A stretch of DNA of 64,000 bases from Candidatus Nanohalarchaeota archaeon (GTDB lineage: Archaea > Nanohalarchaeota > Nanosalinia > Nanosalinales > Nanosalinaceae), in contig JALDAJ010000001.1 of NCBI GenBank assembly GCA_022729235.1, positions 800,001 through 864,000 on the forward strand. The letters are read 5' to 3'. Below, piece after piece: positions 5,774 to 52,942 of the stretch. The number at the start of each line of letters is the position of its first letter. Positions within the stretch are counted from its first letter, which is position 1. Made by a program: the position numbers and the translations under genes. The notes under the pieces were generated by a model, which had not been told where the DNA came from, searched no databases, and worked only from the letters and a program-made list of their open reading frames with translations.

Positions 5774-6174
5774 ACCAGGTCGAACGCCTCCAGGCATCTC
5801 CTCTCCTTTCCAAGGTCTATATCGTAGTCTTGAGGTTTTATCCAGCAGCGCTTCCCGTGCTTGTCTTCTCTCAGTTCTAGGTGTTCTTCTAGGTCTTCGT
5901 AGTCGTGGGTCGCTCTAACCGGGATTATCTTGAACCCGCCTGCTTCCCATGAGTCCTCCTTGCTTGATTCGACAGCTTCTATATCAAGTCCCAGCTCTTC
6001 TTTTATCTCTCTTTCAGCGGTTTCCGTGAGGTTCTCTCCTTTCTTCTGCTTTCCGCCGGGAAACTCCCACATCTCATGGTCTACTCTCCACGTTACCAGG
6101 TATTCCTCTTCTTCAGAAGTACGGGGTATGACTGTTGCAGCGACTCTATTAGTATCGTCCGCGTCACTGCTCAT
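5770..6174 (-). CDS. NUDIX hydrolase (MutT-like)
   Basis: WEFPGGK...ETAEREIKEELG Nudix box. Confidence 0.9.
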   Translation of the reverse strand: MSSDADDTNRVAATVIPRTSEEEEYLVTWRVDHEMWEFPGGKQKKGENLTETAEREIKEELGLDIEAVESSKEDSWEAGGFKIIPVRATHDYEDLEEHLELREDKHGKRCWIKPQDYDIDLGKERRCLEAFDLV

Positions 6175-7954
6175 AGTACTCGCCTTTATCCCTTTGCTCC
6201 TTGTCTTTTTGCGAGTCTGGCTTGTTCGAGCGTGGTCTTCCGGAGTCCGGGTCTTTCCTGTATGTGATGCCGACTTCTTCCAGGAAGGAGTTCATCGCGT
6301 CTCCAATTCTCGAGGGTTCGGAAGATTTTCCCTGGATTCCGGGTTCGCCCTGGAATACAATTCCTCTATCGGAGATGTAGTCGAGGAGTAGGAGGTCGTG
6401 GTCAATCACCATCAGAGGTTTCTCTGTCTTCCTCGCGAACCTTTTCAGTGTCTTTCCAAGTTCCACTCTCGCCTCCACATCGAGATACGCGCTCGGTTCG
6501 TCCAGGAGGTAGACTTCTGCGTCCCTCGCCAGACAGATCGCTACTGCAACTCTCTGCAGTTCTCCGCCGGATAGTTCCTGGAGGTTCTGTTCGTAGTATT
6601 TTTCGAGTTTCAGTGGCTCCGCTATCCTTGTCTTGAAACTCTGGTTTTCTGGGTTGACGTGTTTCCTCAGCGCTTCTTCAACTGTCTCGTCTTCTGGTTC
6701 AATGTACTGCGGCTTGTAGGAGATGTCTATGTCTGGTGATTCACCTTCATCCGGTTTTACGGCGCCGGCAAGCATCTTTGCGAACACGGTCTTACCGAGC
6801 CCGTTCTCTCCGAATATCGCCAGTATCTCCTCTTCATGTAGCTCTCCTTCACTGGTTTCAAGTTCGAACTCTCCTTTGCCGAAGTCTTTGCTGAAAGAGG
6901 GGTAATTGAATACTGTCCTGTTGTGTTCGACCTGTGACCTTTTCGTGCGGTCGAATTTGATCTCGCTGTCCCTGAAGCGGAGGTTGTGGGAGGGTAACAT
7001 TCCTTCGAGGTACTGGTTGATACCGTTTCTTGCGGTCATGGAGTTGGAGACCATCCCGTAGCTTCCTGAGTCGCCGTAGAAGATGTGGATGGTGTCCGCG
7101 ACGAGGTCCAGGGTGGCGAGGTCGTGCTCTACCACCATCACTGCTCGGTCTTCTCCCAGTTCCCTGATTTCGCGGGCGACACGTAAACGCTGGCTGACGT
7201 CGAGGAACGAGGAGGGTTCGTCTATCATGTATATATCGCGGTCTTTCAGGAGCGTGGATGCGATCGCCACGCGCTGCAGTTCTCCCCCGGAGAGCTGGTC
7301 GAGCTCCCTGTCAAGCAGGTGTTCTATGTCGAGTCTTTCAGCTATTTCTTCCACGCTGAGCCTTTCACGCGCATTCTCCAGAAGCTCTTTTACCTGTCCG
7401 TCGTATGCCTCCGGTATCGCCTCGACTTGCTGAGGTTTAAATGCCGCATCTACTTCATTGTTCGCGAGTTTTGTGAAGTGCTCCTGCAGTCCGGTTCCCC
7501 GGTACTTCTCCTGTATCTTATCCCAACCAGGAGGGTTCTCGTAGTCGCCGAGGTTCGGCTTAATCTTTCCCGCAAGTATCTCAAGCGCGGTCGATTTACC
7601 TATACCGTTCTCCCCCAGTATTCCGACTACTCGACCCTCCTCCGGTACAGGTAGTCCGTAAAGCCTGAACGAGTTCTCGGAGAACTGGTGCATCTTCTCG
7701 CCTTCTTCATGAGGCAGTTGCACAAGCTTGATCGCGTCCTCGTAGGGATACTTCTTTATCGCCATCCTGTGAGCTTCCATCACGTCTTCCTCGTCGATAT
7801 GTAGCTCCTCGTTCTCGATGTAGAAACCGCCTTCTTTACCGGCGCGGTTCAAAGGGTCGTAGTTGATAACTGTCTCTCTCGCGAGGTCCGGCTCGATCTT
7901 GTCCTGGTCTACAACGACGATGAATTTCTTCTGTTTTTCCGTCGGCATATACAA
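6164..7954 (-). CDS. rli1: Ribosome recycling ATPase ABCE1/Rli1 (N-terminal Fe-S domain lacks cysteines)
   Basis: Two ABC cassettes (GENGIGKS, LSGGELQR twice, DEPS), FRLYGLP motif, C-terminal GRPRSNKPDS. Confidence 0.95.
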   Translation of the reverse strand: MYMPTEKQKKFIVVVDQDKIEPDLARETVINYDPLNRAGKEGGFYIENEELHIDEEDVMEAHRMAIKKYPYEDAIKLVQLPHEEGEKMHQFSENSFRLYGLPVPEEGRVVGILGENGIGKSTALEILAGKIKPNLGDYENPPGWDKIQEKYRGTGLQEHFTKLANNEVDAAFKPQQVEAIPEAYDGQVKELLENARERLSVEEIAERLDIEHLLDRELDQLSGGELQRVAIASTLLKDRDIYMIDEPSSFLDVSQRLRVAREIRELGEDRAVMVVEHDLATLDLVADTIHIFYGDSGSYGMVSNSMTARNGINQYLEGMLPSHNLRFRDSEIKFDRTKRSQVEHNRTVFNYPSFSKDFGKGEFELETSEGELHEEEILAIFGENGLGKTVFAKMLAGAVKPDEGESPDIDISYKPQYIEPEDETVEEALRKHVNPENQSFKTRIAEPLKLEKYYEQNLQELSGGELQRVAVAICLARDAEVYLLDEPSAYLDVEARVELGKTLKRFARKTEKPLMVIDHDLLLLDYISDRGIVFQGEPGIQGKSSEPSRIGDAMNSFLEEVGITYRKDPDSGRPRSNKPDSQKDKEQRDKGEYYEQ

Positions 7955-8047
7955 AGAGGTATTATGAAGATTTATTTAGTTCTGGTTGTGGACCTAGTCA
8001 GATGGGTTTCCCGAAAGCAGATAAATGGAGGTGCTCCTTATTTGCAT

Positions 8048-8671
8048 ATGGAATTGGATATTAATGATACTCTAACTGATATCTATCATAAGGCTCAAGG
8101 GCTATCAGAGGAAGAGATTGCGGAACATATCGAGGAAGTTGTAAAAGATGCAATTGAGGAATTTGAAGATTATGGTTTAAAGTTTGAGGATCTCCCTGAG
8201 GTAGAGTACAGCCTTAACAAAGACGGTGCAGATTACAACCCTGATAAGGATAAGATCACGGTAGGTGTCCCTGCGGCGGACGGTGAGTATGTTAAACATC
8301 CTTTGAATGAGGAGGTTGATGAAGAGAAGGATAAGGGTCATGAGGATGTTTATAGGCTCTCTCTTGGAGATGTCCTACGGTACGGTCTTGGTCAAGCTGC
8401 AAGCAACCGTTTGATGGGGGATGACTCTGATGAATCTATTGACGAGGGAATCTGGCAGGCATTTCTCTACCATAATAATCAGGAACGGATGGGGTTCGAG
8501 GAATTCGTGGAAGAACGTAAAGAACAGTACAGAAGTAGAGGCTTGAAGGAGGATGTTTTTGAGGATGCTGCCGATATAACCTACGAACATCTAGAGGGAG
8601 AAGATGTTGACCTCAAAAATATTATTAAGACAGTTTACCATGATTTAGAGGATAATTTAGAGAAGGGGTAA
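8048..8671 (+). CDS. Hypothetical acidic protein
   Basis: Long acidic ORF; ATG 8048 chosen as the likely start. Confidence 0.6.
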   Translation: MELDINDTLTDIYHKAQGLSEEEIAEHIEEVVKDAIEEFEDYGLKFEDLPEVEYSLNKDGADYNPDKDKITVGVPAADGEYVKHPLNEEVDEEKDKGHEDVYRLSLGDVLRYGLGQAASNRLMGDDSDESIDEGIWQAFLYHNNQERMGFEEFVEERKEQYRSRGLKEDVFEDAADITYEHLEGEDVDLKNIIKTVYHDLEDNLEKG

Positions 8672-8725: not shown

Positions 8726-9229
8726 CTACTCGAACGAGAGTTCGTAGTCAGTTCCGGTAACCCAGTTGATTATCTTCTCGAACTCGTCTGTTGATAGGTT
8801 GATCTTGCCCTCGTAGCTTTCATCGACTACTATCTTCTGGTGTTCTCCGTCCGGTTTGAAGACGGTGTTGATGGATTCTACTTCTGCGGGCGATAGCAGT
8901 CCTTTGATGACTTCCATATCGCTCTCTGCTGCCTCAACTACTCTTATCGATTTCTCTATCCTATCCGCCAGTTCTTTGACTATCTCCCCGTTTCTACCGA
9001 CGACCTTTGCACCATCACCCTCTGCAGTTATCACAGCTACCACGTTTTCCATGTCAAATACTTTCTTGATTTCTGAGTCTTTCAGGGAACCGTAGTCAGT
9101 GGAAAGGTCCTGGAGTATCCGGGAGATTTTGATGTCGATTTCGTCTATTTCTGCCTCGTCGAGCTTCTCCTCGCATCCTGAACAGAGCTGGTCGCTCTTG
9201 AGACATACGTTACAGATTGGAGCCTTCAT
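8726..9229 (-). CDS. Archaeal NusA-like KH protein with N-terminal zinc motif
   Basis: MKAPICNVCLKSDQLCSGC plus KH VVGRNG motif. Confidence 0.88.
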   Translation of the reverse strand: MKAPICNVCLKSDQLCSGCEEKLDEAEIDEIDIKISRILQDLSTDYGSLKDSEIKKVFDMENVVAVITAEGDGAKVVGRNGEIVKELADRIEKSIRVVEAAESDMEVIKGLLSPAEVESINTVFKPDGEHQKIVVDESYEGKINLSTDEFEKIINWVTGTDYELSFE

Positions 9230-10073: not shown

Positions 10074-11144
10074 CTACTTCATGACTTCCAGTCCCAGGTC
10101 GTTGACGTCACCTGATACCTCTGTTTCGGTTTCCTCTTCCACGTCTCCGAGGATGTAAGGTGATTCAACCCCGGTTACGATGGATATGACCTGTATTTTA
10201 CCTTCAAGCTGTTCTTTCACTCTCGCACCCCATATCACCTGGGCGTGGTCGTCGAGGTTGCCCTGGACTGTCTGACCGACGTCGTTGATCTCGTTGAGCG
10301 TCAGATCCTGTCCTCCAGCTACATGGATTAGAGCTCCGTTGGCGTCCTCAAAGCTGACGTCAAGTAGTGGGTTGGATAATGCTTCGTGGATCGCTTCTTC
10401 TCCTTTGTTATTCGTATCTGATTCTCCGTATCCTACTACTGCTACTCCTCCCTGGTTCATCACTGCTCTTACGTCTGCATAGTCCAGATTGACGAGGGAC
10501 GGCTTGGAGATAGTTTCTGTAACGCCTTTTATCATCGTAGTTATGAGTTCATCCGCGACTCCGAACGCCTGGTCAAGAGGCATGTCGCCTGCGATGTCGA
10601 GCAGTCGGTCGTTTTCGATTACAATCGCGGTGTCGACATGCTGTCTCATCCGGTATAAGCCGTCTTCTGCCTTGGACATTCTTGCTCCTTCTATCTCGAA
10701 AGGCATTGTAACGGTTCCGATTACGATGCAGTCTTCTTTCTTTGCGATTTCTGCTAGTACAGGTGCGGCACCAGTACCTGTTCCTCCGCCAAGTCCGCAG
10801 GTTACAAAGACCATGTCTGCGTCAGCGAATAATTTTCTTAGTTCCGCACGGTTCTCTTCCGCGCTTCTCTCACCTTTTTGAGGGTGTCCTCCTGCACCGA
10901 GACCCTTTGTCAGGTCACGTCCGATGAGTATCTTTCTATCGGCGCTGGAAATTTCCAGGTGCTGTTTATCGGTATTGATAGCTACAGTCTCGGCACCGTC
11001 AACATTCTTTTTCTGGATGCGCGTTACCTGGTTGTTGCCGGCTCCGCCGACTCCTACAACCAATATTTTAGCATCTTTAACATCCTCTAGGTTAGAGGTT
11101 TTAGCCTGTTCTTGGGATTGCGTGTTGTTGATTATGGATTCCAT
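10074..11144 (-). CDS. ftsZ: Cell division protein FtsZ
   Basis: [17 protein letters not shown] and NLDYAD signatures. Confidence 0.98.
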
Positions 11145-37532: not shown

Positions 37533-37829
37533 ATGGATTATCCTCTTTCGACTCCTTTTAAACTCTACTGCTGGACTCAAAGCAGTGTATACTACATCTT
37601 CTATGAACACTGTGAAGGCTATGAACGTCCCCATAAACTCGGTTTAGACCTTCTGTTGAGAGAAGTCAATCTATGTCCTGTCTGTGAAGGTTATGAATCC
37701 AGATTTCACAGGGGTCAGTGTAGGTTTACTGACTTTATTCTAGAGCTAGACGTTTTAAACGAAAAATATGACAGAAATAACAGGGTTCAAAGGGTTCATA
37801 ACCCCTCCATAGGAGGGGTTGTAGAATAA
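37533..37829 (+). CDS. Hypothetical protein with CPxC
   Basis: TAATG-coupled to MCM. Confidence 0.5.
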   Translation: MDYPLSTPFKLYCWTQSSVYYIFYEHCEGYERPHKLGLDLLLREVNLCPVCEGYESRFHRGQCRFTDFILELDVLNEKYDRNNRVQRVHNPSIGGVVE

Positions 37830-40090
37830 TGAGTAACAACCAGAAGCTGAATGAGAAAAGAAGAAAGATACTGAACTATCTGAAAAACAGTGGCGAGCAG
37901 ACAACCAAGAAAATCTTCGAAAACTCAGATACCGATTACAGTTCGAAAAACTCTCTCAATAATGCCCTGAATCGTCTCAAGAATCACGGATACCTGAAAA
38001 AGACAAATCCAAAAGGTCAATCAAATTACTGGAAACTTACAGAAAAGGGAAGAGAAGCAATATCTGCTAGAAAGATTGATGTAAAAGATAGTACTTTAGA
38101 ATATGGAGAATTAGTTAGAAGACTGGGAGATTTTGTACAAGAAAAATTACAGGATGATATTGCGCACGCTATCAAGAAAGATAAAAAATCTTGGATAGAG
38201 GTCAGTCTTCCAGACTTGGACAGATTCGATAAAGAAATAGTGAATAAATTGCTGAAAGACCCCGACACGGTACTAGAGGCATTTGAAGAAGTAGTAGAAA
38301 ATAGTTCTCTGGTAGGTAGAGAAGATTCTTTGGAAGTTAGGATTGTAGATTTGCCTGAAGAAGATACAGTAAAACTTTCAGAGATTTACAGCGAAAATAT
38401 AGGTCATTTCGTAGCGGTGGAAGGAATTATTACCAATAATATACTCTCAAAACCTGCAGTTAAATCAGGTATATTCGAGTGTGCAAAGTGTGGAGACCAG
38501 TACAAGAAAGAACAGGACTCCTCTCACCTAAAATCACCATATAAATGTGAATGCGGTTCTAGAAAATTTGAGGTTGTAGAAAAGATTCTGCAGGACACTA
38601 AGACAATTAGTATACAGGAGAGAACCAGCAAGCCGAATCCCAGGAAGCGTGAAGTATACCTGGAAGGCAGTCTAGCAAGAAATAAAGAATTAGAGAACGC
38701 CAGCCTTGGTTCTTTAATTAGAGTAAATGGTATTCTACGAGACCGTCCTCTCAAGAAAAATTCCAAGAAGCTAGAACCCTATATAGAGGCAAACTCTATT
38801 GAGTTCAAGGACAAGAACGAAGTGGAAGAAATAAGTGAGGAAATACAAGAACAAGTACAAGAATTATCTAAAAACCCTGAAATAAAAAGCAAGCTCAAGG
38901 AATCGGTAGCCCAAGGGAAAATCGGAGGTCTTGACCGTGTCAAAGAAGGATACCTACTTTATAGGCTTGGAAAATTTCCAGAAGGAGATATACATCTTCT
39001 GATAGCAGGAGAGCCAGGAGTCGGAAAATCTGAACTAGTTTCAACCAGCGCAGAAACACTTCCTAGAACAGTATATACGGTACTTGAAAATTCTACAAGT
39101 ACAGGTATTACCGCATCGCTCACTGAAGACAAGAAGAAAGGAGGATATGAAGTAAATGCTAACGCTCTTGTAAAAGCAGATGACGGCTTCTTTATAGGTG
39201 ATGAAGCAGGAAAATTTAACGACTCTTACAGTTGCTTCAATACGCCTATGGAGGATGGAGAAGTAAATAGGTCTGCAGGAGATAAGGATATTAGACTGCC
39301 TGCGAAGGCGTCTGTCTGTCTAGTTATGAATCCGTCAGACGTGAATGATAGAAGGTGGGATGGAAAGCCGTCAATAGATGATTTACCTGTAAGCTCTCAA
39401 AGTGATATTTTAAGCAGATTCCATCTCAAAATAGCTATACCCAGTCAGGAAATAGGGGGAAGTGACAGTTTACGGAGAGAAATTAGAAAGGCGGAGAAGG
39501 TTCTTTCATCTGATGAAAACAGAGCAGAGCTTGACCTAGATATTTACCGTGCATATCTTTCAGTAGCTGAAGATATAAATCCAGAAATCTCAGAGGAGGG
39601 TGAAGAACTTCTAAAACGTATCTATGTAGGACTATCATTAAAGAATTACACTTTATCTCCAAGGACTTTGATTGCGTTAAAGAGGATAGCAAAGGCGTAT
39701 TCAAGAATACGTTTGGAGAATAAAGTCTCTGAAGAAAGAGTAATAGAGGCTTACATATTCTGGAAAGAATGTCAAGCTACTCTCTATGAGGAGTTTAGAG
39801 AGGAAAAGCGAAGGGTCACAGAATCTAGTGGATTTCAGAAACAGAAACCGTCTCTATTAGGTGAACTTCTGGAAGTGCTCAGTAGAAATAATGGAAGAAT
39901 GAGGAAGGAGGACTTAAAGGAGGAGCTGGAGCTTGGGGGTTCGGAATCTAAACGGGAAAAAGTTTTTGGAGAGTTAATTGAAGACGCCTTGGAGCAAAAT
40001 GCAGTATCGGAAGAAGGACAGTTTATATATCTGGAAAAAGAGCCTGACTTTTTCGGAGGAGAAGTTGTAGAAATCTTGGAGAATATCTAG
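37829..40090 (+). CDS. mcm: MCM-family helicase of the mobile element, with N-terminal wHTH
   Basis: CAKCG..CECGS zinc finger, GEPGVGKS Walker A, FIGDE Walker B, SRF Arg finger, SPR sensor 2. Confidence 0.9.
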   Translation: MSNNQKLNEKRRKILNYLKNSGEQTTKKIFENSDTDYSSKNSLNNALNRLKNHGYLKKTNPKGQSNYWKLTEKGREAISARKIDVKDSTLEYGELVRRLGDFVQEKLQDDIAHAIKKDKKSWIEVSLPDLDRFDKEIVNKLLKDPDTVLEAFEEVVENSSLVGREDSLEVRIVDLPEEDTVKLSEIYSENIGHFVAVEGIITNNILSKPAVKSGIFECAKCGDQYKKEQDSSHLKSPYKCECGSRKFEVVEKILQDTKTISIQERTSKPNPRKREVYLEGSLARNKELENASLGSLIRVNGILRDRPLKKNSKKLEPYIEANSIEFKDKNEVEEISEEIQEQVQELSKNPEIKSKLKESVAQGKIGGLDRVKEGYLLYRLGKFPEGDIHLLIAGEPGVGKSELVSTSAETLPRTVYTVLENSTSTGITASLTEDKKKGGYEVNANALVKADDGFFIGDEAGKFNDSYSCFNTPMEDGEVNRSAGDKDIRLPAKASVCLVMNPSDVNDRRWDGKPSIDDLPVSSQSDILSRFHLKIAIPSQEIGGSDSLRREIRKAEKVLSSDENRAELDLDIYRAYLSVAEDINPEISEEGEELLKRIYVGLSLKNYTLSPRTLIALKRIAKAYSRIRLENKVSEERVIEAYIFWKECQATLYEEFREEKRRVTESSGFQKQKPSLLGELLEVLSRNNGRMRKEDLKEELELGGSESKREKVFGELIEDALEQNAVSEEGQFIYLEKEPDFFGGEVVEILENI

Positions 40091-45599: not shown

Positions 45600-48500
45600 A
45601 TGCCGTATTCGAAGATAACTTCTTCAGATATAGCGAATTGGGACTCTATAGATAAAATCGCTGAATCTCTAGAGAAAAGAGGCTTGGAGCGTGAAAAGAA
45701 TCTTTCAGAACACGACGATGAAATTGTATTGAGAATAAATGACGACGAATTTGTTGCTGTAGTGAAGGCAGAGGAAGGAAAGAAAGCATCGGATTATCGA
45801 ACCAGAATGGACTCAGCAAGGCACACACAAGTTGTTTCTACCACAGATTTCGAAAACTTTACTTTCACAAGCAGAAGACGTTCCTGGGATAAACACGGAC
45901 GAATTCAATACCAGAAATTCTCCTTCAGCAAAGACCAGTTCACAGGACGTGGAGAAAAAAGGTCAGTCCTAGAAAAACTCAACAATATAGAATATGGTGA
46001 CTCTAGAACTATAGACCAGATTTACGAAACACAGAAAGTTGTCAAGAAATTCTACGACGAGTTCGAAGAAATTAAAGCTGAGATGGTCAGAAATGTAGAG
46101 AATATACCTGAAGACAGAGGAGATGCAAAACAAAATTACGCTCAGACTATTTTTGACCGACTGATTTTCCTTTACTTTATCCAAGAGAAAAAGCTTCTAG
46201 ACTACAAGAAGGACTACCTCAGACGACATCACGAAAGAATTACAGAAGAAGGTGAAGATGTATACGAGGAATTTTACGAACCATTATTCTTCAAACTGTT
46301 ATCTGAAGGAGCAAAAGATACTGAGTTCGGAGAATTACCGTACCTGAACGGAGGGCTTTTCAGCAAGACGAGAATCGAAGAAGAATTCCCAGAAGCAAGG
46401 CTTGGAAGCGGTGTGGAAGAAACCAACGAACTATTCGAAGAAATACTTGACTTCCTCGACAGTTGGAACTGGCACGCTGACGAAAGATTAGATATAGTAG
46501 ACCCGAACAGAGTGAGTCCAGAACTTCTCGGGCATATTTTCGAGAAAACAGTCAATCAGAAAGAAATGGGGGCATACTACACGCCAGAAGAAATCACCCA
46601 TTTTATGGCGAGAAACTCCATTCATCCATATATTATAGACAGGCTGAATGAGAAATTCGATACTAACTACGAAGAAATAGACGAAGTATTCAACTTAGAC
46701 GAATATGAGGAAGACGAAGAAACTTACGAACACGATGAAACGAGAATCGGAGAACTGGACGGAATAAACCGAGAAGAAGTAGAACATCTCTACTTCGAAG
46801 TTCTTGAAGACCTGAAGGTTCTCGACCCTGCAGTAGGTTCTGGAGCATTCCTGCTCGCAGCCCAAGAAGTCCTACTAGACGTATACCTTTCCTGCATCGA
46901 ATATTTCCAGAAGCTCGACGAAGAACAGAAATGGGAGATGACACCGCAAATAACGGAGTTTGTCCAGGAGCTAGAGGAAGGAACGCAGAGCGAATCGATG
47001 CACGCCAAGAGAGAAATTATTCTACAGAACCTCTACGGTGTCGATATTGACAGAGGGGCAACAGAAATCTGTAAGCTCCGACTATGGTTATCAATTGTCG
47101 CAGACCTCGAAGAAGGGAAAGACCCGACAGAAGTTGAAACTCTCCCGAACATCGATTTCAATATCAGACAAGGAAACAGTCTTGTCGGTTTTACACAGCC
47201 ACTGGACAAAGCTCTTGACGGCGGCTCTAGTGGTCAGAACACCCAGTCCAGCCTTCATCATTTTAATGAAGACTCCATAAAGGAGAAATACGAAGACATT
47301 ATTGACGCAATTGAGAAGCATAAACGTGCAGATAGCAGTAAGGAGGCAGAAAAATATAGGAAAGATGCAGAAGAACTTCTTAGCAAATATAGAAGTGAAC
47401 CTAACCAGAAGATAAAGAAGCAGTTTGAAAATGCGGGGGCAGAGGTTGATAAAGATACAATAGAAGACTTCTCTCCGTTCCACTGGGTTTTAGAATTCGC
47501 TGAGGTTTATTCTGAGGGCGGATTTGATGTAATTGTCGGAAACCCGCCTTGGGAACAGCTTAAACCGCTGAGAGATGAGTATTTCGAACAGTTCGATGCT
47601 ACATTTAGAGGTCTAAAACCTGATGAAAAGAAGGAGAGGAAGAAAGAGCTATTGGAAGACCCTGAAATCGAAGCGGGATGGGAAGAATACCAGAGAGAAA
47701 TAGATATTCAATCCACCTACTTTAAGAAATCGGGCGTGTATCAATTCCAGCAGCCAGTTGTAGATGGCAGGAAGCACGGGACGGAGAGAGAGCTAGCTGC
47801 TCTATTTTTGGAGAGAGTTTTCTCTTTAGCGGATGAAGAAGGTTATGTATCTCAAATTTTACCTGGAAAAATCTGGAATGGTAGTTCAGCGAAAGATTTG
47901 CGGATGCATTTGCTTAACGGAACGAACATCCGTTCTCTGGTAACGTTTGAAAATAAAGGAATATTCAGCGATATACATCCTCAATATAGATTTGGAGTAG
48001 TTGTGTTTGAGAACCAGGACGAGACTGAAGAATTAGAAGGTATTTTCGGACAAACAGAAACTGATATTCTAGAGAGATTAGATGACGCTAGTGTCCAGAT
48101 TCCAAAAGAAGTTCTGGCTAAATTTTCACCAGAAGCTCGCACTTTCCCAACCATTAAGTCAGAAGAAGATGTCAAAGCTCTCAAGCCTATCTTAGATTAT
48201 CCGCCTATAGGGGATGATATAGAGAATAAGTGGGTCGTGCAAAGCTATAGAGAACTAGACAGAACGAATGACTCAGATAGATTTGTTGAAAAAGAAAAAG
48301 GCGATTATCCAATATACAGCGGAGGCAACATCTTCCAGTTCTGTTACAAAGATGTAGATGGAATTAGTCTGGAAGACACTGAATTCTGGAGTGTTGATGA
48401 AGAAAAAGACCCTGAAGTGAGTGCAAAGAGAAGAATCAGAGAGAAGAACACCTTGGAGCTAAAGAAGCAACTATACCAGGCTTTCGATGGAAGTGGTTCT

Positions 48501-49205
48501 CAAAAGAAATTTGTTAATGAATTATTAGAAAAGAAAAGAGGTAGAAGTCTAGAGCTAGATGATGTGTTGCTCGACTGTAGGACTTTCAGAATTGCTTATA
48601 GGTATGTAGCCAGACAGACGGATGAACGCTCTATGATTGCTTCTGTTTTGCCCAAAGGAGTAGTTACCAGAAATCAAGCACCGACGGTCAGACCTTTCGA
48701 AATAAACCCTTCTAAGGATGACCTTGATTCTGAAGACCTGCACAGTTGCTACGAGGAGATTTTCTCTACCGAAGAACTCTTTTACGCTGTAGGAATTATG
48801 AACAGTCTGCCTTTCGACTTCGTGATGCGAATGAAAGCTGACGCCTCAATTCCTGCTTACAGACTTGAAGAAACTCAAGCACCTCGTCTGACCGAAGGCG
48901 ACAAATGGTTTGAATTTATATGGGAGCGGGCTGCGAAGCTAAACGCTTATGATGAAGAATTCAAGGAAGTCCGAGAGGAACTTGATATTGAGGCTGTAAA
49001 AGAGGGAGAGAAAAGAAAAGAACTTCAGGCAGAGATTGATGCAGCAGCTTTCAAAGCCTATGGTGTGGAAGATAATGAGGCTAGGCACATACTCGATACT
49101 TTCCATAAGGTCAATAATCCTCGAATGATGGATGACGAGTATTTTGATATGGTTTGGGACAAATATCAGGATTTAAAGGAGAAAAAGGAGGTAGTAGCTG
49201 AATAA
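45600..49205 (+). CDS. Type IIG/Eco57I-like amino-methyltransferase (restriction-modification)
   Basis: YLNGGLF, GAYYTP, DPAVGSGAF, GFDVIVGNPPW; C-terminal TRD. Confidence 0.92.
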   Translation: MPYSKITSSDIANWDSIDKIAESLEKRGLEREKNLSEHDDEIVLRINDDEFVAVVKAEEGKKASDYRTRMDSARHTQVVSTTDFENFTFTSRRRSWDKHGRIQYQKFSFSKDQFTGRGEKRSVLEKLNNIEYGDSRTIDQIYETQKVVKKFYDEFEEIKAEMVRNVENIPEDRGDAKQNYAQTIFDRLIFLYFIQEKKLLDYKKDYLRRHHERITEEGEDVYEEFYEPLFFKLLSEGAKDTEFGELPYLNGGLFSKTRIEEEFPEARLGSGVEETNELFEEILDFLDSWNWHADERLDIVDPNRVSPELLGHIFEKTVNQKEMGAYYTPEEITHFMARNSIHPYIIDRLNEKFDTNYEEIDEVFNLDEYEEDEETYEHDETRIGELDGINREEVEHLYFEVLEDLKVLDPAVGSGAFLLAAQEVLLDVYLSCIEYFQKLDEEQKWEMTPQITEFVQELEEGTQSESMHAKREIILQNLYGVDIDRGATEICKLRLWLSIVADLEEGKDPTEVETLPNIDFNIRQGNSLVGFTQPLDKALDGGSSGQNTQSSLHHFNEDSIKEKYEDIIDAIEKHKRADSSKEAEKYRKDAEELLSKYRSEPNQKIKKQFENAGAEVDKDTIEDFSPFHWVLEFAEVYSEGGFDVIVGNPPWEQLKPLRDEYFEQFDATFRGLKPDEKKERKKELLEDPEIEAGWEEYQREIDIQSTYFKKSGVYQFQQPVVDGRKHGTERELAALFLERVFSLADEEGYVSQILPGKIWNGSSAKDLRMHLLNGTNIRSLVTFENKGIFSDIHPQYRFGVVVFENQDETEELEGIFGQTETDILERLDDASVQIPKEVLAKFSPEARTFPTIKSEEDVKALKPILDYPPIGDDIENKWVVQSYRELDRTNDSDRFVEKEKGDYPIYSGGNIFQFCYKDVDGISLEDTEFWSVDEEKDPEVSAKRRIREKNTLELKKQLYQAFDGSGSQKKFVNELLEKKRGRSLELDDVLLDCRTFRIAYRYVARQTDERSMIASVLPKGVVTRNQAPTVRPFEINPSKDDLDSEDLHSCYEEIFSTEELFYAVGIMNSLPFDFVMRMKADASIPAYRLEETQAPRLTEGDKWFEFIWERAAKLNAYDEEFKEVREELDIEAVKEGEKRKELQAEIDAAAFKAYGVEDNEARHILDTFHKVNNPRMMDDEYFDMVWDKYQDLKEKKEVVAE

Positions 49206-52200
49206 TGGTATTTCTTGACCCGATTATCGATAATCAGGAACATAGCTTGCGTGATACTTACAAGAAGCTTGTTAGAAGAAGTGAAGAAGTCCGAATTGCT
49301 ACAGGTTACTTCTACTTGTCAGGCTTTAATCTGTATAAGGAAGACCTAGAAGAACTTGCTGACCCTGAAGAACTTGGAAAATCACCTATTCGAATCATAA
49401 TGGGTAGGAAGACAGATAGAAGAACTGCTGATGAGCTTGAAGAAGGTTTTAATCTGCGTGAGCAGATGGAAGATGATATTCACGAAGATATTGAACAGCT
49501 TAACAACGCCCAGATGGATAGGTTAGAAAGACTCAAAGACTTCATCGCAGAAGGACTTGTAGATGTCAGAATCAGCAATCCTGATGGAGGAAGTTTCCAC
49601 GCTAAAGGAGCTTCTTTCAGAGAGCCACTCACTGAAGGCGAGAAAAATGTAGAAGACCAGGACAGAAGACCTGTTTCCGTAATTGTAGGGTCATCGAACT
49701 TCTCAGAAACAGGACATACTAAAAATATCGAACTAAACCTCTCCTCTCAAGATGCTACGAAGGCAGCAGAGTTTGAAGGATGGTTCGACAACAGATGGGC
49801 GAACTCCGAAGAATTTAATCAGGAACTAATTGAGATAATAGAATCGAATCCAAAATATCAGGACTGGAAAGAAGACCAAGAAGAAACAGAGGGCGAAGAA
49901 AGTGAAGAACTCGAACTCGGAACATTTATCGAACCATTCGAATACTACAAAATGCTGGCATACGACGCACTGGATGGCTATGTCAGCGACAGACACAACA
50001 GCCCACTATACCACTTCCAGCACAGAGGATACGAAAGTGCAAAAGCAAAGCTCGCCAAATATGACGGAGCAATTATCTCTGACAGTGTAGGACTTGGAAA
50101 GTCATTCATCGGAGCAGAAATTCTAAGGGACTACAGACACAACGGACTCAACGCACTTCTAATCGTTCCAGCACACCTAACCAACCAGTGGGAAGAACTT
50201 CTGGAAGAAGCAACAGATGAAACAGGTAACAAATACTTCAACCTTGAAGTCGATGACCGCCATCTTGAGGTAATGAGCATCACGAAGTTCCAGAACTTGG
50301 AATATGAAAGAGTTCAGGAACTTCGAGAACAGTTTGATGCAGTTCTTGTAGACGAGGCACACCGATTTAGGAACAGCGGTCGCTGGAAACCAGGAAAAGA
50401 AGATTACAAAGGAACTCGAAGATACGCCAACCTCAGAGAGTTCAAGGACAAGAAGATGATAATGTTGACAGCGACTCCTCTGAATAACAGTGCAGAGGAC
50501 TTGAAGAATCTGATAAGCTTATTCACCAACGAGAAAGACCTAAGAAATATCGATGGTCTGGACTTCGATGCATTCGACGAATACATCAAGCTTGCTAGCA
50601 AGCGTAAGAAGATGATTAGGGAGGATGAGGTAGACCAGCAAGAGCTTCAGAAAATACTTGACCAACTTGCTGACAAAGCCGAAGAAATCGGAAATATTCT
50701 TGACAGTGTGATGGTTCTCAGAACGAGGAAACACGTCAAGGAGCAACTACGAGAGGAAGAAGACTTCGATATGAACTTCAAGCCTCCAGAAGTCCACAAG
50801 GAGAACTATACGCTTCCTGATGCGTATCAACCTGCATATGAAGTTCTTCCAGATATAATGAATGCTCTACACCTCCCGCATATTACAATCAGAAATCCGC
50901 AGGGAGGCAGCACCTTGAAGGCGCTCTACAAGTTGAACCTGCTGAAAAGACTGGAATCATCGCCATATGCATTCATAATGTCGCTTCAGACACTTTACGA
51001 GAGTGAAACCAAACTATTAGATATACTTGAGGACTTGCCAGAAGACGAAAAGGTCAGAGAACTTCAAGAGCTACAAGATGAAGATAAAGTCGTTCTCGAA
51101 GATTTCACGCAGAACGAGGAAACAGCAGAAGGACTCCAGTCAACACTTGAGGAACTTGGATTCGATGATTCTGTCGCCAGACAAGGCGATGATGTAGTTG
51201 ACGACCTCGAAAAAGCAGAGGTCGGAGATGTCATCAAATTTATCCGTGAAGACCTGGCGATGCTCTCTCACTTCGCATCACAGTTCGTTACAGGCATAGC
51301 TCCTCAGGACGAAGAACTCAACGACCTAAAACACACTACCGATAACTGGCTGCGAGAGAAAGGACTCAATAAAATACCTGATGTTCCACCGACCAAATAC
51401 GATGAAGTAGTCTACCCTGGCACTGACTTGGAGGATGCGGTCGAGGAGCTAGAACCATTCTATAACAGAATCTTCGACATCCAAGAGTTCAAGGACACGA
51501 AAGTAGACAGGTTAGCGAAGGTTCTGAACAAACAGGACGGTAAGACTATCATATTCACTCAGTATAGAGCCACAGCAGACTACATCTACGACCAATTGCT
51601 GGATTCCGATGAATCACCTATGACAAGAGAAAACAGTGCGGTCGTAAAGGGAGGTGACAAGAACAAGCAGGATGTTGTGAAAAGATTCTCACCAGGCTCT
51701 ACTGGTTATCAGTCAACACTTGATGAAGAAGGAGAAAACGAGCTAGACTACGTGGTCGCAACTGACACACTTTCCGAAGGAGTCAATCTTCAAGATGTAA
51801 ACACAGCAATAAACTACGACCTGCCTTGGAATCCGATGCGTATCGTTCAGAGAGTCGGAAGAATCGACCGAATCGGAAGCACAGCCGACAAACACGTCCA
51901 CAACTTCTTCCCAGACGAAGACCTAGAAACAGCCATCAAACTACTGGAAAGACTCCAAGCAAAGATTGACGACATCGCACTGATTGTCGGAAAAGAAAAC
52001 AACATACTCGACCCTAACGAAGACGAAGTCCTAGACCGCGCAGGAGTCGAAAAAGAGAAAACCATCGGAGAAATTGAACTCGAAGAAATACAAGAAAGCG
52101 TCCAAAAATCCAGAGAAGTAGAAGACATCAACGAATTAGACGACACCAGTCAAAACGCGCTCCTACGTAGAACAGGCAAGGAAAGCGAGAAAGAAGCATT

Positions 52201-52942
52201 TAGACGTGTAAAGCTCAAGCAAGAACTTCAGGATAAATACGACCTCGAAGAATCAGACTTCGAGTTCGCTGAAGACTACTTTGAAACACAGCCAGAAGAC
52301 AGAGAACAACTATACACTGTCCTCAACGAAGACAATATTTCCGAAGCATCAGTCCTAGCCTTGATGCATATCTGGTACGAGAACTCAGATGCACCACTAA
52401 ACCGTGCCGAGCGAGAAGTATATTACACAAGCTCTCACAAGGACGAGGTCAACACTATCAACAGCGTCCGCCAAATCAATATCAGTAAGTATGAAGATAC
52501 AGAAAAGATTGACGAAGTTGATGAGACTCTGAAGAATGAGATTGAATTAATCACAGAAAAGGTCGATGAAAGAACTGGTGAGGCAGAGAAATCTCAGGTA
52601 GAGGGAGCTTACAAGGAAGGCGGAAAGAAATCAAAACAACAGGAAATGGTTCTGGAATACCTTGAAAGAAAAATCATACCTGAAGAAGACCACTTAGAAG
52701 AACAGGCACAGGAAATACTTAACAGACTGAAACATCCTAATCTGAAGAATACCGAGGAAGGCAGAGAGTTACGCAGCTTACTCGGCGACCAAGCCCTGAC
52801 CGATTGGGATACTCAAGAACTACTAAACGAACTTCAGGGATTTGTCGAGGAGTTCATCCAAGAATCACCTGAATACCAGTCAAAGCTAGCCAAGAAAAGC
52901 GAAGTCAACTCCGACACTCCCGTCTGGGCAGTAGTTCGCTGA
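49205..52942 (+). CDS. PLD-nuclease + SNF2/SF2 helicase fusion
   Basis: ATGYF, FHAK..GSSN, DSVGLGKS, DEAH, TATP, SEGVNLQ, QRVGRIDR. Confidence 0.92.
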   Translation: MVFLDPIIDNQEHSLRDTYKKLVRRSEEVRIATGYFYLSGFNLYKEDLEELADPEELGKSPIRIIMGRKTDRRTADELEEGFNLREQMEDDIHEDIEQLNNAQMDRLERLKDFIAEGLVDVRISNPDGGSFHAKGASFREPLTEGEKNVEDQDRRPVSVIVGSSNFSETGHTKNIELNLSSQDATKAAEFEGWFDNRWANSEEFNQELIEIIESNPKYQDWKEDQEETEGEESEELELGTFIEPFEYYKMLAYDALDGYVSDRHNSPLYHFQHRGYESAKAKLAKYDGAIISDSVGLGKSFIGAEILRDYRHNGLNALLIVPAHLTNQWEELLEEATDETGNKYFNLEVDDRHLEVMSITKFQNLEYERVQELREQFDAVLVDEAHRFRNSGRWKPGKEDYKGTRRYANLREFKDKKMIMLTATPLNNSAEDLKNLISLFTNEKDLRNIDGLDFDAFDEYIKLASKRKKMIREDEVDQQELQKILDQLADKAEEIGNILDSVMVLRTRKHVKEQLREEEDFDMNFKPPEVHKENYTLPDAYQPAYEVLPDIMNALHLPHITIRNPQGGSTLKALYKLNLLKRLESSPYAFIMSLQTLYESETKLLDILEDLPEDEKVRELQELQDEDKVVLEDFTQNEETAEGLQSTLEELGFDDSVARQGDDVVDDLEKAEVGDVIKFIREDLAMLSHFASQFVTGIAPQDEELNDLKHTTDNWLREKGLNKIPDVPPTKYDEVVYPGTDLEDAVEELEPFYNRIFDIQEFKDTKVDRLAKVLNKQDGKTIIFTQYRATADYIYDQLLDSDESPMTRENSAVVKGGDKNKQDVVKRFSPGSTGYQSTLDEEGENELDYVVATDTLSEGVNLQDVNTAINYDLPWNPMRIVQRVGRIDRIGSTADKHVHNFFPDEDLETAIKLLERLQAKIDDIALIVGKENNILDPNEDEVLDRAGVEKEKTIGEIELEEIQESVQKSREVEDINELDDTSQNALLRRTGKESEKEAFRRVKLKQELQDKYDLEESDFEFAEDYFETQPEDREQLYTVLNEDNISEASVLALMHIWYENSDAPLNRAEREVYYTSSHKDEVNTINSVRQINISKYEDTEKIDEVDETLKNEIELITEKVDERTGEAEKSQVEGAYKEGGKKSKQQEMVLEYLERKIIPEEDHLEEQAQEILNRLKHPNLKNTEEGRELRSLLGDQALTDWDTQELLNELQGFVEEFIQESPEYQSKLAKKSEVNSDTPVWAVVR

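Follow-up and report, generated by a model that had tools for sequence, protein, structure and literature searches.

ABCE1/Rli1 is the textbook essential iron-sulfur (Fe-S) protein of translation, and it is often cited to explain why eukaryotes cannot do without Fe-S biogenesis, and thus without mitochondria or mitochondrial remnants. A 2021 and a 2026 review (PMC8153317, PMC13255074) still list eight conserved cysteines, at least seven of them needed for viability, and agree with an earlier note on the DNA analysed here, which had called the two eight-cysteine [4Fe-4S] clusters conserved and essential. This DNA, hereafter the window, is a stretch of 64,000 nucleotides from a Candidatus Nanohalarchaeota archaeon (assembly GCA_022729235.1, contig JALDAJ010000001.1, positions 800,001 to 864,000), and on its reverse strand it carries an ABCE1 gene whose N-terminal domain has lost all eight cysteines. 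We put at roughly 80% the probability that the product is a working recycling ATPase with a cluster-free, protein-only wedge domain.

The open reading frame (ORF) spans 6164..7954 on the reverse strand as 596 uninterrupted codons, and its translation is identical to that quoted in the earlier note. It scored 725.9 bits against the NCBIfam equivalog model for the ribosome biogenesis/translation initiation ATPase RLI (NF009945; cut-off 469), with protein residues 12-595 aligned to model positions 4-589 of 592, and 181 bits against the NCBIfam ABC-F model, for which the cut-off is 380. An in-frame TTG lies at 7954, two codons upstream of an ATG at 7948, and we take the ATG as the true start because orthologues and the database entry for the same protein begin MPTEK. 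Residue numbers refer to this 594-residue form unless marked otherwise, with 7712-7954 corresponding to residues 1-79. The gene and its parts are:

6164..7948, reverse strand: ABCE1/RLI gene, 594 residues plus stop, start at ATG 7948

7712..7924, reverse strand: Cys-free N-terminal domain, homologous to the ABCE1 FeS domain (about residues 9-79; collinear phmmer alignment)

7853..7897, reverse strand: remnant of motif 1 (CX4CX3CX3CP), residues 18-32, with I18, A23, V27, D31 and P32

7745..7780, reverse strand: remnant of motif 2 (CX2CX2CX3CP), residues 57-68, with M57, H60, A63, Y67 and P68

7649..7735, reverse strand: cantilever strand and linker to the first nucleotide-binding domain (NBD1), residues 72-100 (AIKLVQLP...HQF..N.FRLYGLP)

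7049..7648, reverse strand: NBD1 with helix-loop-helix insertion, about residues 101-300, Walker A G112-K118 (Pfam ABC_tran)

6899..7048, reverse strand: hinge 1, about residues 301-350 (model superposed on 3bk7)

6314..6898, reverse strand: second nucleotide-binding domain (NBD2), about residues 351-545, Walker A N382-K386, holding the only cysteine (Pfam ABC_tran)

6167..6313, reverse strand: hinge 2 and C-terminal region, about residues 546-594 (model matched to 3bk7)

Two observations in the earlier note, that the N-terminal domain runs in register with the FeS domain yet has no cysteine and that both ATPase cassettes are intact, were borne out. Residues 10-100 were collinear with residues 3-94 of S. 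solfataricus ABCE1 in a phmmer alignment (6tmf_d; E 5.4e-8), and the N-terminal 100 residues alone also matched 3bk7/3j15 at 1e-4. In the alignment to 6tmf_d, the cysteines of CX4CX3CX3CP fell on I18, A23, V27 and D31 and those of CX2CX2CX3CP on M57, H60, A63 and Y67, with cysteine at 0/8 ligand positions, while the motif prolines P20, P32 and P68 were retained. There is no cysteine in the first 100 residues, and the sole one in the whole protein (C474 in 596-residue numbering) sits inside NBD2. Neither the Pfam RLI model (PF04068) nor the 4Fe-4S ferredoxin-type model (PF00037) matched the window protein even at E ≤ 1; ABC_tran matched two stretches of it. Across 45 Cys-free sequences, D31, P32, L33, R35, G37, G41, F42, M57, H60 and P68 were among the invariant residues, H50 and E58 were nearly invariant, and the linker residues H87, N92, F94, L96 and Y97 were invariant as well. 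Both cassettes have Walker A, Q-loop, signature, Walker B and H-loop, and all 33 columns invariant in a 126-sequence ABCE1 alignment are present in the window protein (among them, in NBD1, G112, N114, G117, K118, Q173, S220, G222, Q225, D243, E244 and H275; in NBD2, N382, G385, K386, Q414, G462, Q465, D483, E484 and H517; in the C-terminal region, R571, N575 and Q585).

The host genome is a single contig of 1,027,595 bp rated 95% complete, with an acidic proteome (E 11.6%, D 7.3% and C 0.8% in a crude gene set). A profile search of this genome with the RLI model gave one match above the cut-off, the window gene, and four further matches that were single-cassette ABC ATPases at ≤ 111 bits, with no second, canonical ABCE1 of the kind that would make the window gene a paralogue. 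The window gene is confirmed as the organism's full-length, single-copy ABCE1/RLI orthologue.

We mapped the cysteine loss by running the RLI model against 70 genomes of the phylum, of which 53 matched at E ≤ 1e-60, and scoring the N-terminal domain wherever the match reached the N-terminus; G054 and G063, matches from the window's own family (f1) without an N-terminus, were left out. The Cys-free state is clade-wide in families f1 and f4. Among 44 f1 genomes, 42 have a residue other than cysteine at all eight positions (I/L/V-A-V-D / M-H-A-Y, where the first residue of motif 2 is M57 by motif spacing and phmmer, MAFFT placing the neighbouring V56 there). Also in f1, the gene of G057 is cut by a contig end and non-Cys at 7/7 visible positions, and that of G004 has five cysteines (CCCD / x-H-C-C). 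All seven f4 genomes are Cys-free (V-V-A-D / V-H-I-(I/V)), sharing the Asp and His with f1 and differing in the hydrophobic replacements, and the single f5 genome (G028) keeps 8/8 cysteines (CCCC / CCCC). A search of 5.8 billion proteins with the N-terminal 100 residues gave 142 matches, and the 120 listed plus the query (121/121) have a Cys-free domain, a set picked by similarity to that domain and hence biased, indicating breadth and not frequency. Precomputed Pfam annotation of these 120 homologues likewise lacks the RLI and 4Fe-4S domains, and the source names of several include Candidatus Nanohaloarchaea, Ca. Nanohalobium constans, Ca. Nanohalococcus occultus and Ca. Nanosalina.

Within f1 no other region is as well conserved as the Cys-free domain, whose mean pairwise identity across 40 sequences is 79%, compared to 64% for NBD1, 62% for hinge 1 and 71% each for NBD2 and hinge 2. 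The domain is therefore functional and not decaying. Between f1 and the eight-cysteine f5 protein, identity was 29% in the N-terminal domain and 48-51% in the cassettes. High identity within f1 combined with low identity to f5 is the signature of one remodelling episode followed by strong purifying selection.

No cysteine is left to hold a cluster, and the iron-free state proposed in the earlier note is probable for the window protein from its sequence; the accompanying idea, that a reduced genome may have dispensed with Fe-S biogenesis, is contradicted by the genome. A SUF locus lies at 44.7-50.9 kb of the window's genome (G000), in the order sufC (ABC_tran), an unassigned 211-residue ORF, a NifU_N/SufU gene with four cysteines, a SufS-like class-V aminotransferase (453 bits), a small ORF, sufD and sufB. 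The SufB/D core (PF01458) has two matches here (301 and 191 bits) and is also matched in 24/24 other f1 genomes. Clients with their ligands are also present: an XPD-like helicase (DEAD_2, HBB, Helicase_C_2) retains C99, C116, C125 and C168, Elp3 retains C90, C94 and C97, and a 505-residue radical-SAM protein retains C233, C237 and C240. A six-frame search of the genome for CxxCxxCxxxC(P) found the motif in no plausible gene, with matches only in short Cys-rich off-frame stretches. Of the proteins whose co-absence the earlier note had proposed as a check, SufB/D and XPD are thus present, PriL has a sub-threshold match only, and RpoD is Cys-free. This RpoD (190 residues) is uninformative as to Fe-S loss; the RpoD cluster is missing in many archaea. 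Since SUF genes and Fe-S clients are kept, the cluster loss is specific to ABCE1, and the genome is Fe-S-poor, not Fe-S-free.

The sub-threshold PriL match (16.2 bits) comes from a primase-like ORF of 471 residues on the reverse strand (G000:C1:78380-79795), which has one internal cysteine and a C-terminal CxxC...H...C tail, without the four-cysteine cluster signature. It is a further candidate for a protein that binds Fe-S elsewhere and is Cys-poor here.

On the reading we favour, the window protein would act as an ATP-driven twin-cassette motor that splits the 70S ribosome with aRF1 or aPelota and then stays on the 30S subunit; of these partners, the genome encodes aRF1 (125 bits) and, at 43 bits, a Pelota-like protein. 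The wedge domain would keep the shape and position of the FeS domain, held by protein alone, with the ligands of cluster I replaced by the hydrophobic residues I18, A23, V27 and Y67, which would fill the cluster cavity, and those of cluster II by D31, M57, H60 and A63. We infer that the protein binds no metal and still splits ribosomes. A plausible driver would be the freeing of an essential translation factor from a cofactor labile to oxygen and reactive oxygen species (ROS) in aerotolerant fermenters on aerobic hosts. Nanohaloarchaeota are described, in the relevant parts of two genome papers, as aerotolerant sugar-fermenting anaerobes without respiratory complexes that are attached to aerobic haloarchaea (PMC7443923; PMC9765267), and the clusters of yeast Rli1 are reported as a main target of ROS toxicity (PMC3442406).

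Structure prediction was in line with a retained domain. The full-length AlphaFold2 model, made from the 126-sequence alignment of Cys-free and canonical proteins, had a mean predicted local distance difference test (pLDDT) score of 90.7 and a predicted template modelling (pTM) score of 0.85, with pLDDT 83-93 over residues 10-80 and the strand and helix order expected of the FeS domain. The predicted architecture includes the helix-loop-helix of NBD1 (insertion helices 142-148 and 153-162), hinge 1, hinge 2 and an N-terminal domain packed on NBD1. The top Foldseek match was complete P. abyssi ABCE1 (3bk7; TM 0.92, root-mean-square deviation (rmsd) 2.5 Å over 599 columns), and FeS-deleted crystal forms reached a query-normalised TM of just 0.80-0.81. 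The whole of 3bk7 outscores the FeS-deleted forms, and the N-terminal domain is therefore modelled in its canonical place. Post-splitting complexes fitted the model worse (TM ~0.7, rmsd ~12 Å), which places it in the open, pre-splitting arrangement.

The residues by which the FeS domain touches the small subunit were compared using the 2.8-Å post-splitting complex of S. solfataricus, for which the sections of PMC7196836 (EMBO J 2020) on these contacts list R2, K15, N17, E19 and K59 towards rRNA, P25, R28 and S29 towards uS12, and I68 and N70 in the cantilever network. Mapped through the phmmer alignment to 6tmf_d, P25 and R28 correspond to identical and invariant residues here (P32 and R35), K59 is also identical (K65), S29 is an alanine (A36), and the cantilever residues are conservatively replaced (I68 by L75, N70 by Q77). 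The same source describes a K12-P13-D14 loop that would clash with NBD2 on closure; its counterpart in the window protein is E19-P20-D21. By this alignment the uS12 face and the cantilever are retained and the rRNA face is partly altered.

Several points weigh against a retained and working wedge. Four of the ten listed 30S-contact positions are altered, N17 being R24 here, K15 L22, E19 T26 and R2 F9, with K8 adjacent. When residues 1-100 were folded with an alignment of Cys-free sequences only, pLDDT was a middling 70.7, with the other four models at 50-59; the order of secondary-structure elements was the same as in the full-length model. This isolated-domain model found weak matches only in the PDB with Foldseek (ferredoxin 4ov1, E 0.24; ABCE1 7o80, E 0.31), Fe-S domains of dihydropyrimidine dehydrogenase also being among them, and reached a best Z of 3.5, again weak, in a VIA wide search. 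Because canonical ABCE1 sequences were in the full-length alignment and AlphaFold was trained on solved ABCE1 structures, the statement that the fold is retained is partly homology reasoning; retention is well supported by homology and the full-length model, short of independent proof. High salt inside the cell may make it easier for a small hydrophobic core to stand in for a cluster: Cys-free f1 and f4 proteins are strongly acidic, with a net charge of -6.5 to -7.8 per 100 residues, and the eight-cysteine f5 protein, at +2.1, is not. However, the Cys-poor database proteins P0122 and P0124 are not strongly acidic, and salt therefore does not suffice to explain why a cluster-free fold is stable. 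Two further points, the residues at the old cluster-II site and the state of a third family, f3, bear on specific alternatives.

The invariant Asp/His/Met trio at the cluster-II site could be a metal site instead. A mononuclear Zn, Fe or Cu ion held there by D31, M57 and H60, with H50 and E58, would stabilise or regulate the wedge, and the invariance of the trio and near-invariance of the other two in the 45 Cys-free sequences would be accounted for. The same Asp and His are also conserved in a class of ABCE1 that has lost cluster II (class A, below), and the ligand table of PMC13255074 shows the positions meeting at a single cluster in canonical ABCE1. However, just three candidate ligands stand at ligand positions, the combination of Met, Asp and His is uncommon, the fourth position is occupied by Ala in f1 or Ile in f4, and a buried Asp-His pair with a Met fills the cavity equally well, such that we regard a metal site as unlikely.

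An N-terminal domain that is only a vestige, in a protein retained for some different ATPase function (30S anti-association or biogenesis, for example) while recycling is done otherwise, is a very improbable explanation. Support for it comes from f3, in which ABCE1 was found in 0/10 genomes (80-93% complete; G026, G029, G031, G033, G035, G037, G039, G041, G042 and G043) at E ≤ 1e-60, and in which five genomes searched at E ≤ 1e-10 gave nothing beyond single-cassette ABC matches of ≤ 94 bits. An aRF1/Pelota-family (eRF1_2) gene was above the family cut-off in 4/4 f3 genomes tested, three of them having a strong match of the aRF1 type (126-130 bits) accompanied by a weaker match of the Pelota type, and G035 reaching 56 bits at best. 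A family that has aRF1 and Pelota yet no ABCE1 suggests dispensability, and the requirement for ABCE1 may have been relaxed in the phylum; the lack of the 'universal' recycling factor in an archaeal family would be remarkable in itself. The four differing contact residues also fit a vestige. A vestige should drift, however, and the domain is the best conserved region (79% vs 64-71% for the cassettes), still has P32 and R35 for contact with uS12 as well as the cantilever, and is joined to cassettes whose catalytic motifs are both intact.

A paralogue, pseudogene, assembly error or mis-binned gene can be dismissed, for although the sequence is unusual and the relative G004 carries a mosaic gene, the window gene is an uninterrupted, single-copy ORF in a closed-looking 1.03-Mb single contig, and the same state recurs in 42 + 7 independent genomes and 121 database proteins, some of them named Nanohaloarchaea. 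Artefact, sequencing error or chance as the cause of the cysteine loss was ruled out by the same eight substitutions in 42 related genomes.

Possible steps towards a working ABCE1 with a cluster-free wedge were found among database proteins. Whole-protein scoring against 1.84 billion cluster representatives gave 439 matches at E ≤ 1e-30, and in the best 150 of the 439 we tallied cysteines by pairwise alignment to a canonical reference, in which motif 2 may be one residue off in divergent sequences with counts unaffected. Among the 113 of these 150 that align fully in the N-terminal domain, 102 have eight cysteines and three have none (P0016, P0122 and P0137); one cysteine is left in one protein (P0124), four in two, five in one, six in three and seven in one. 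All four forms with none or one grouped with the nanohaloarchaeal f1/f4 types by replacement pattern. In these searches we also noted a group of longer ABCE1-like proteins of 540-921 residues (P0162, P0165, P0193, P0194, P0206, P0212, P0232 and P0259) with about 5-6 cysteines in a pattern that is roughly C...(A/P)...C-x3-C insert...C-x2-C-x6-CP.

Two classes of ABCE1 with ligands for a single cluster were recovered. Class A, reached via the five-cysteine domain of G004, comprises 24 protein clusters (P0271-P0294) with the motifs CX4CX3CX3-D-PINRSGGEGFH and (T/S)E(A/M)HKI(C/S)AK(K/M)CPF and 4-6 cysteines in the domain. By the table in PMC13255074, which assigns each ABCE1 cysteine to cluster I or cluster II, those kept by class A are exactly the four of cluster I, with D, T/V, H and C/S standing at the cluster II positions instead. 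The exact motif DPINRSGGEGF occurred at eight loci when one genome per species was searched (L080-L087), labelled Woesearchaeota (two), Nanoarchaeia, Nanobdellati and Nanohaloarchaea, plus the unlikely labels Acidobacteriota (one) and Methanosarcinales (two); source and record labels of the class also include DPANN group archaeon. Class B (P0146 and P0296-P0337), reached via P0146, accounts for 44/114 retrieved proteins and has the pattern xxxC / CCC[A/D/E], in which other residues (L/I, E/K.., I, A/D/E) take the place of the four cluster I ligands, the four of cluster II are kept and there is an extra conserved cysteine. Its source labels are Woesearchaeota and Nanoarchaeia.

Cys-free domains are 41-42% identical to class A and 27-29% to canonical domains, and D31 and H60 are common to class A, whereas the cassettes of Cys-free forms are equidistant (43-48% vs 45-49% to class A and canonical, respectively). 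The most economical history, its order being read from these sequences, would run from the canonical form through class A, with cluster II lost, to the Cys-free form. A two-step loss is thus probable, in which cluster II would have gone first, as in class A of Woesearchaeota- and Nanoarchaeia-labelled ABCE1, and cluster I would have followed in halophilic lineages, with strong purifying selection thereafter. The five-cysteine protein of G004 (L026, P0271) was considered as a surviving ancestral form and rejected on its mosaic identities and its position in the cassette tree. Its N-terminal domain shares 67% identity with class A and 44% with f1, its other regions share 64-77% with f1 and 33-52% with class A, and in a quick cassette-only tree it nests inside f1 with an SH-like approximate likelihood ratio test (SH-aLRT) value of 99. 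The G004 gene is a mosaic, from either recombination of the N-terminal ~85 codons or chimeric assembly.

Beside the ABCE1 gene, 7964-8671 on the forward strand encodes a very acidic 235-residue protein without a Pfam match, and 8726-9229 on the reverse strand a 167-residue protein that combines a NusA-like KH domain with a CxxC...CxxC at its N-terminus. An FtsZ-like ORF, judged from the printed sequence alone, lies nearby at 10074-11144 on the reverse strand. Further along, window positions 36000-60000 have a low guanine-cytosine (GC) content (0.39-0.43, compared to 0.44-0.49 in the first 32 kb) and a strong positive adenine-thymine (AT) skew. On its forward strand, this low-GC stretch codes for a helicase of the MCM family (37829-40090), a methyltransferase protein of the Eco57I/MmeI type (45600-49205) and a PLD-SNF2 helicase (49205-52942), and it has the appearance of an integrated element or a defence island.

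Searches of the open full-text literature, with subscription-only papers outside their scope, gave among the papers listed no earlier description of a Cys-less or one-cluster ABCE1, a prior report being what the earlier note had said would remove the novelty. The main texts of the nanohaloarchaeal genome papers PMC7443923 and PMC9765267 contain neither 'iron' nor 'Fe-S', ABCE1 in PMC8339473 is a reference-list mention only, and PMC6514570 proved irrelevant.

Clusters of ABCE1 that have long been called essential appear dispensable in Nanohaloarchaeota. It is probable, taking the families together, that the two clusters are not intrinsically required for recycling, that DPANN archaea present a series from eight cysteines through four, in two reciprocal classes, to none, and that f3, as it appears, went a step further and lost ABCE1. 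The role of these redox-silent clusters is debated, between a structural brace and a sensor of oxygen, ROS or iron, and a conserved natural Cys-free orthologue makes the question directly testable, as these archaea are available in co-culture. Should the Cys-free protein split ribosomes, then the clusters would elsewhere be a brace or an oxygen or iron sensor and not part of the mechanism, and translation could be uncoupled from Fe-S biogenesis. The one-cluster intermediates form an evolutionary series which would indicate that either cluster can go, and which goes first, and its Cys-free endpoint is a wedge, built from protein throughout, that has become fixed in cultivable Nanohaloarchaeota and is under strong constraint there.

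Set against known systems, the window protein has the same length and domain order as canonical archaeal ABCE1 (P. abyssi 3BK7; S. solfataricus 6TMF), is 46% identical to 3bk7 with a TM of 0.92 for the predicted model, and retains in its N-terminal domain the prolines of the motifs, the P-x-x-R that contacts uS12, the pair of lysines (KK) and the cantilever. Canonical ABCE1 has eight cysteines for two [4Fe-4S] clusters, and in the window protein all eight are replaced. Class A shares with it the Asp at motif-1 position 4 and the His at motif-2 position 2, within the common signatures DP(L/I)NR.G.EGGF and (T/M)E(A/M)H, and the window domain is 42% identical to class A vs 29% to canonical domains. 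Class A differs in keeping the four ligands of cluster I, where the window protein has none, and in being non-acidic. Class B likewise has a reduced ligand set and no Pfam RLI or Fer4 match, but it is the reciprocal case, with cluster II kept, and bears no special sequence likeness to the window domain.

Among engineered forms, the cassettes of the window protein superpose on FeS-deleted ABCE1 of S. solfataricus (3OZX) and P. furiosus (1YQT) with a target-normalised TM of 0.92. These constructs miss the entire FeS domain, whereas the window ABCE1 has the domain in conserved form; such constructs reportedly do not split ribosomes, a finding attributed to Barthelme et al. in 2011. ATPases of the ABCF/EttA type are likewise soluble, twin-cassette and ribosome-acting, but they match the model weakly (TM ~0.3-0.5) and have no N-terminal wedge domain. 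The window protein is an unambiguous ABCE1 orthologue that fails its family's textbook cofactor criterion.

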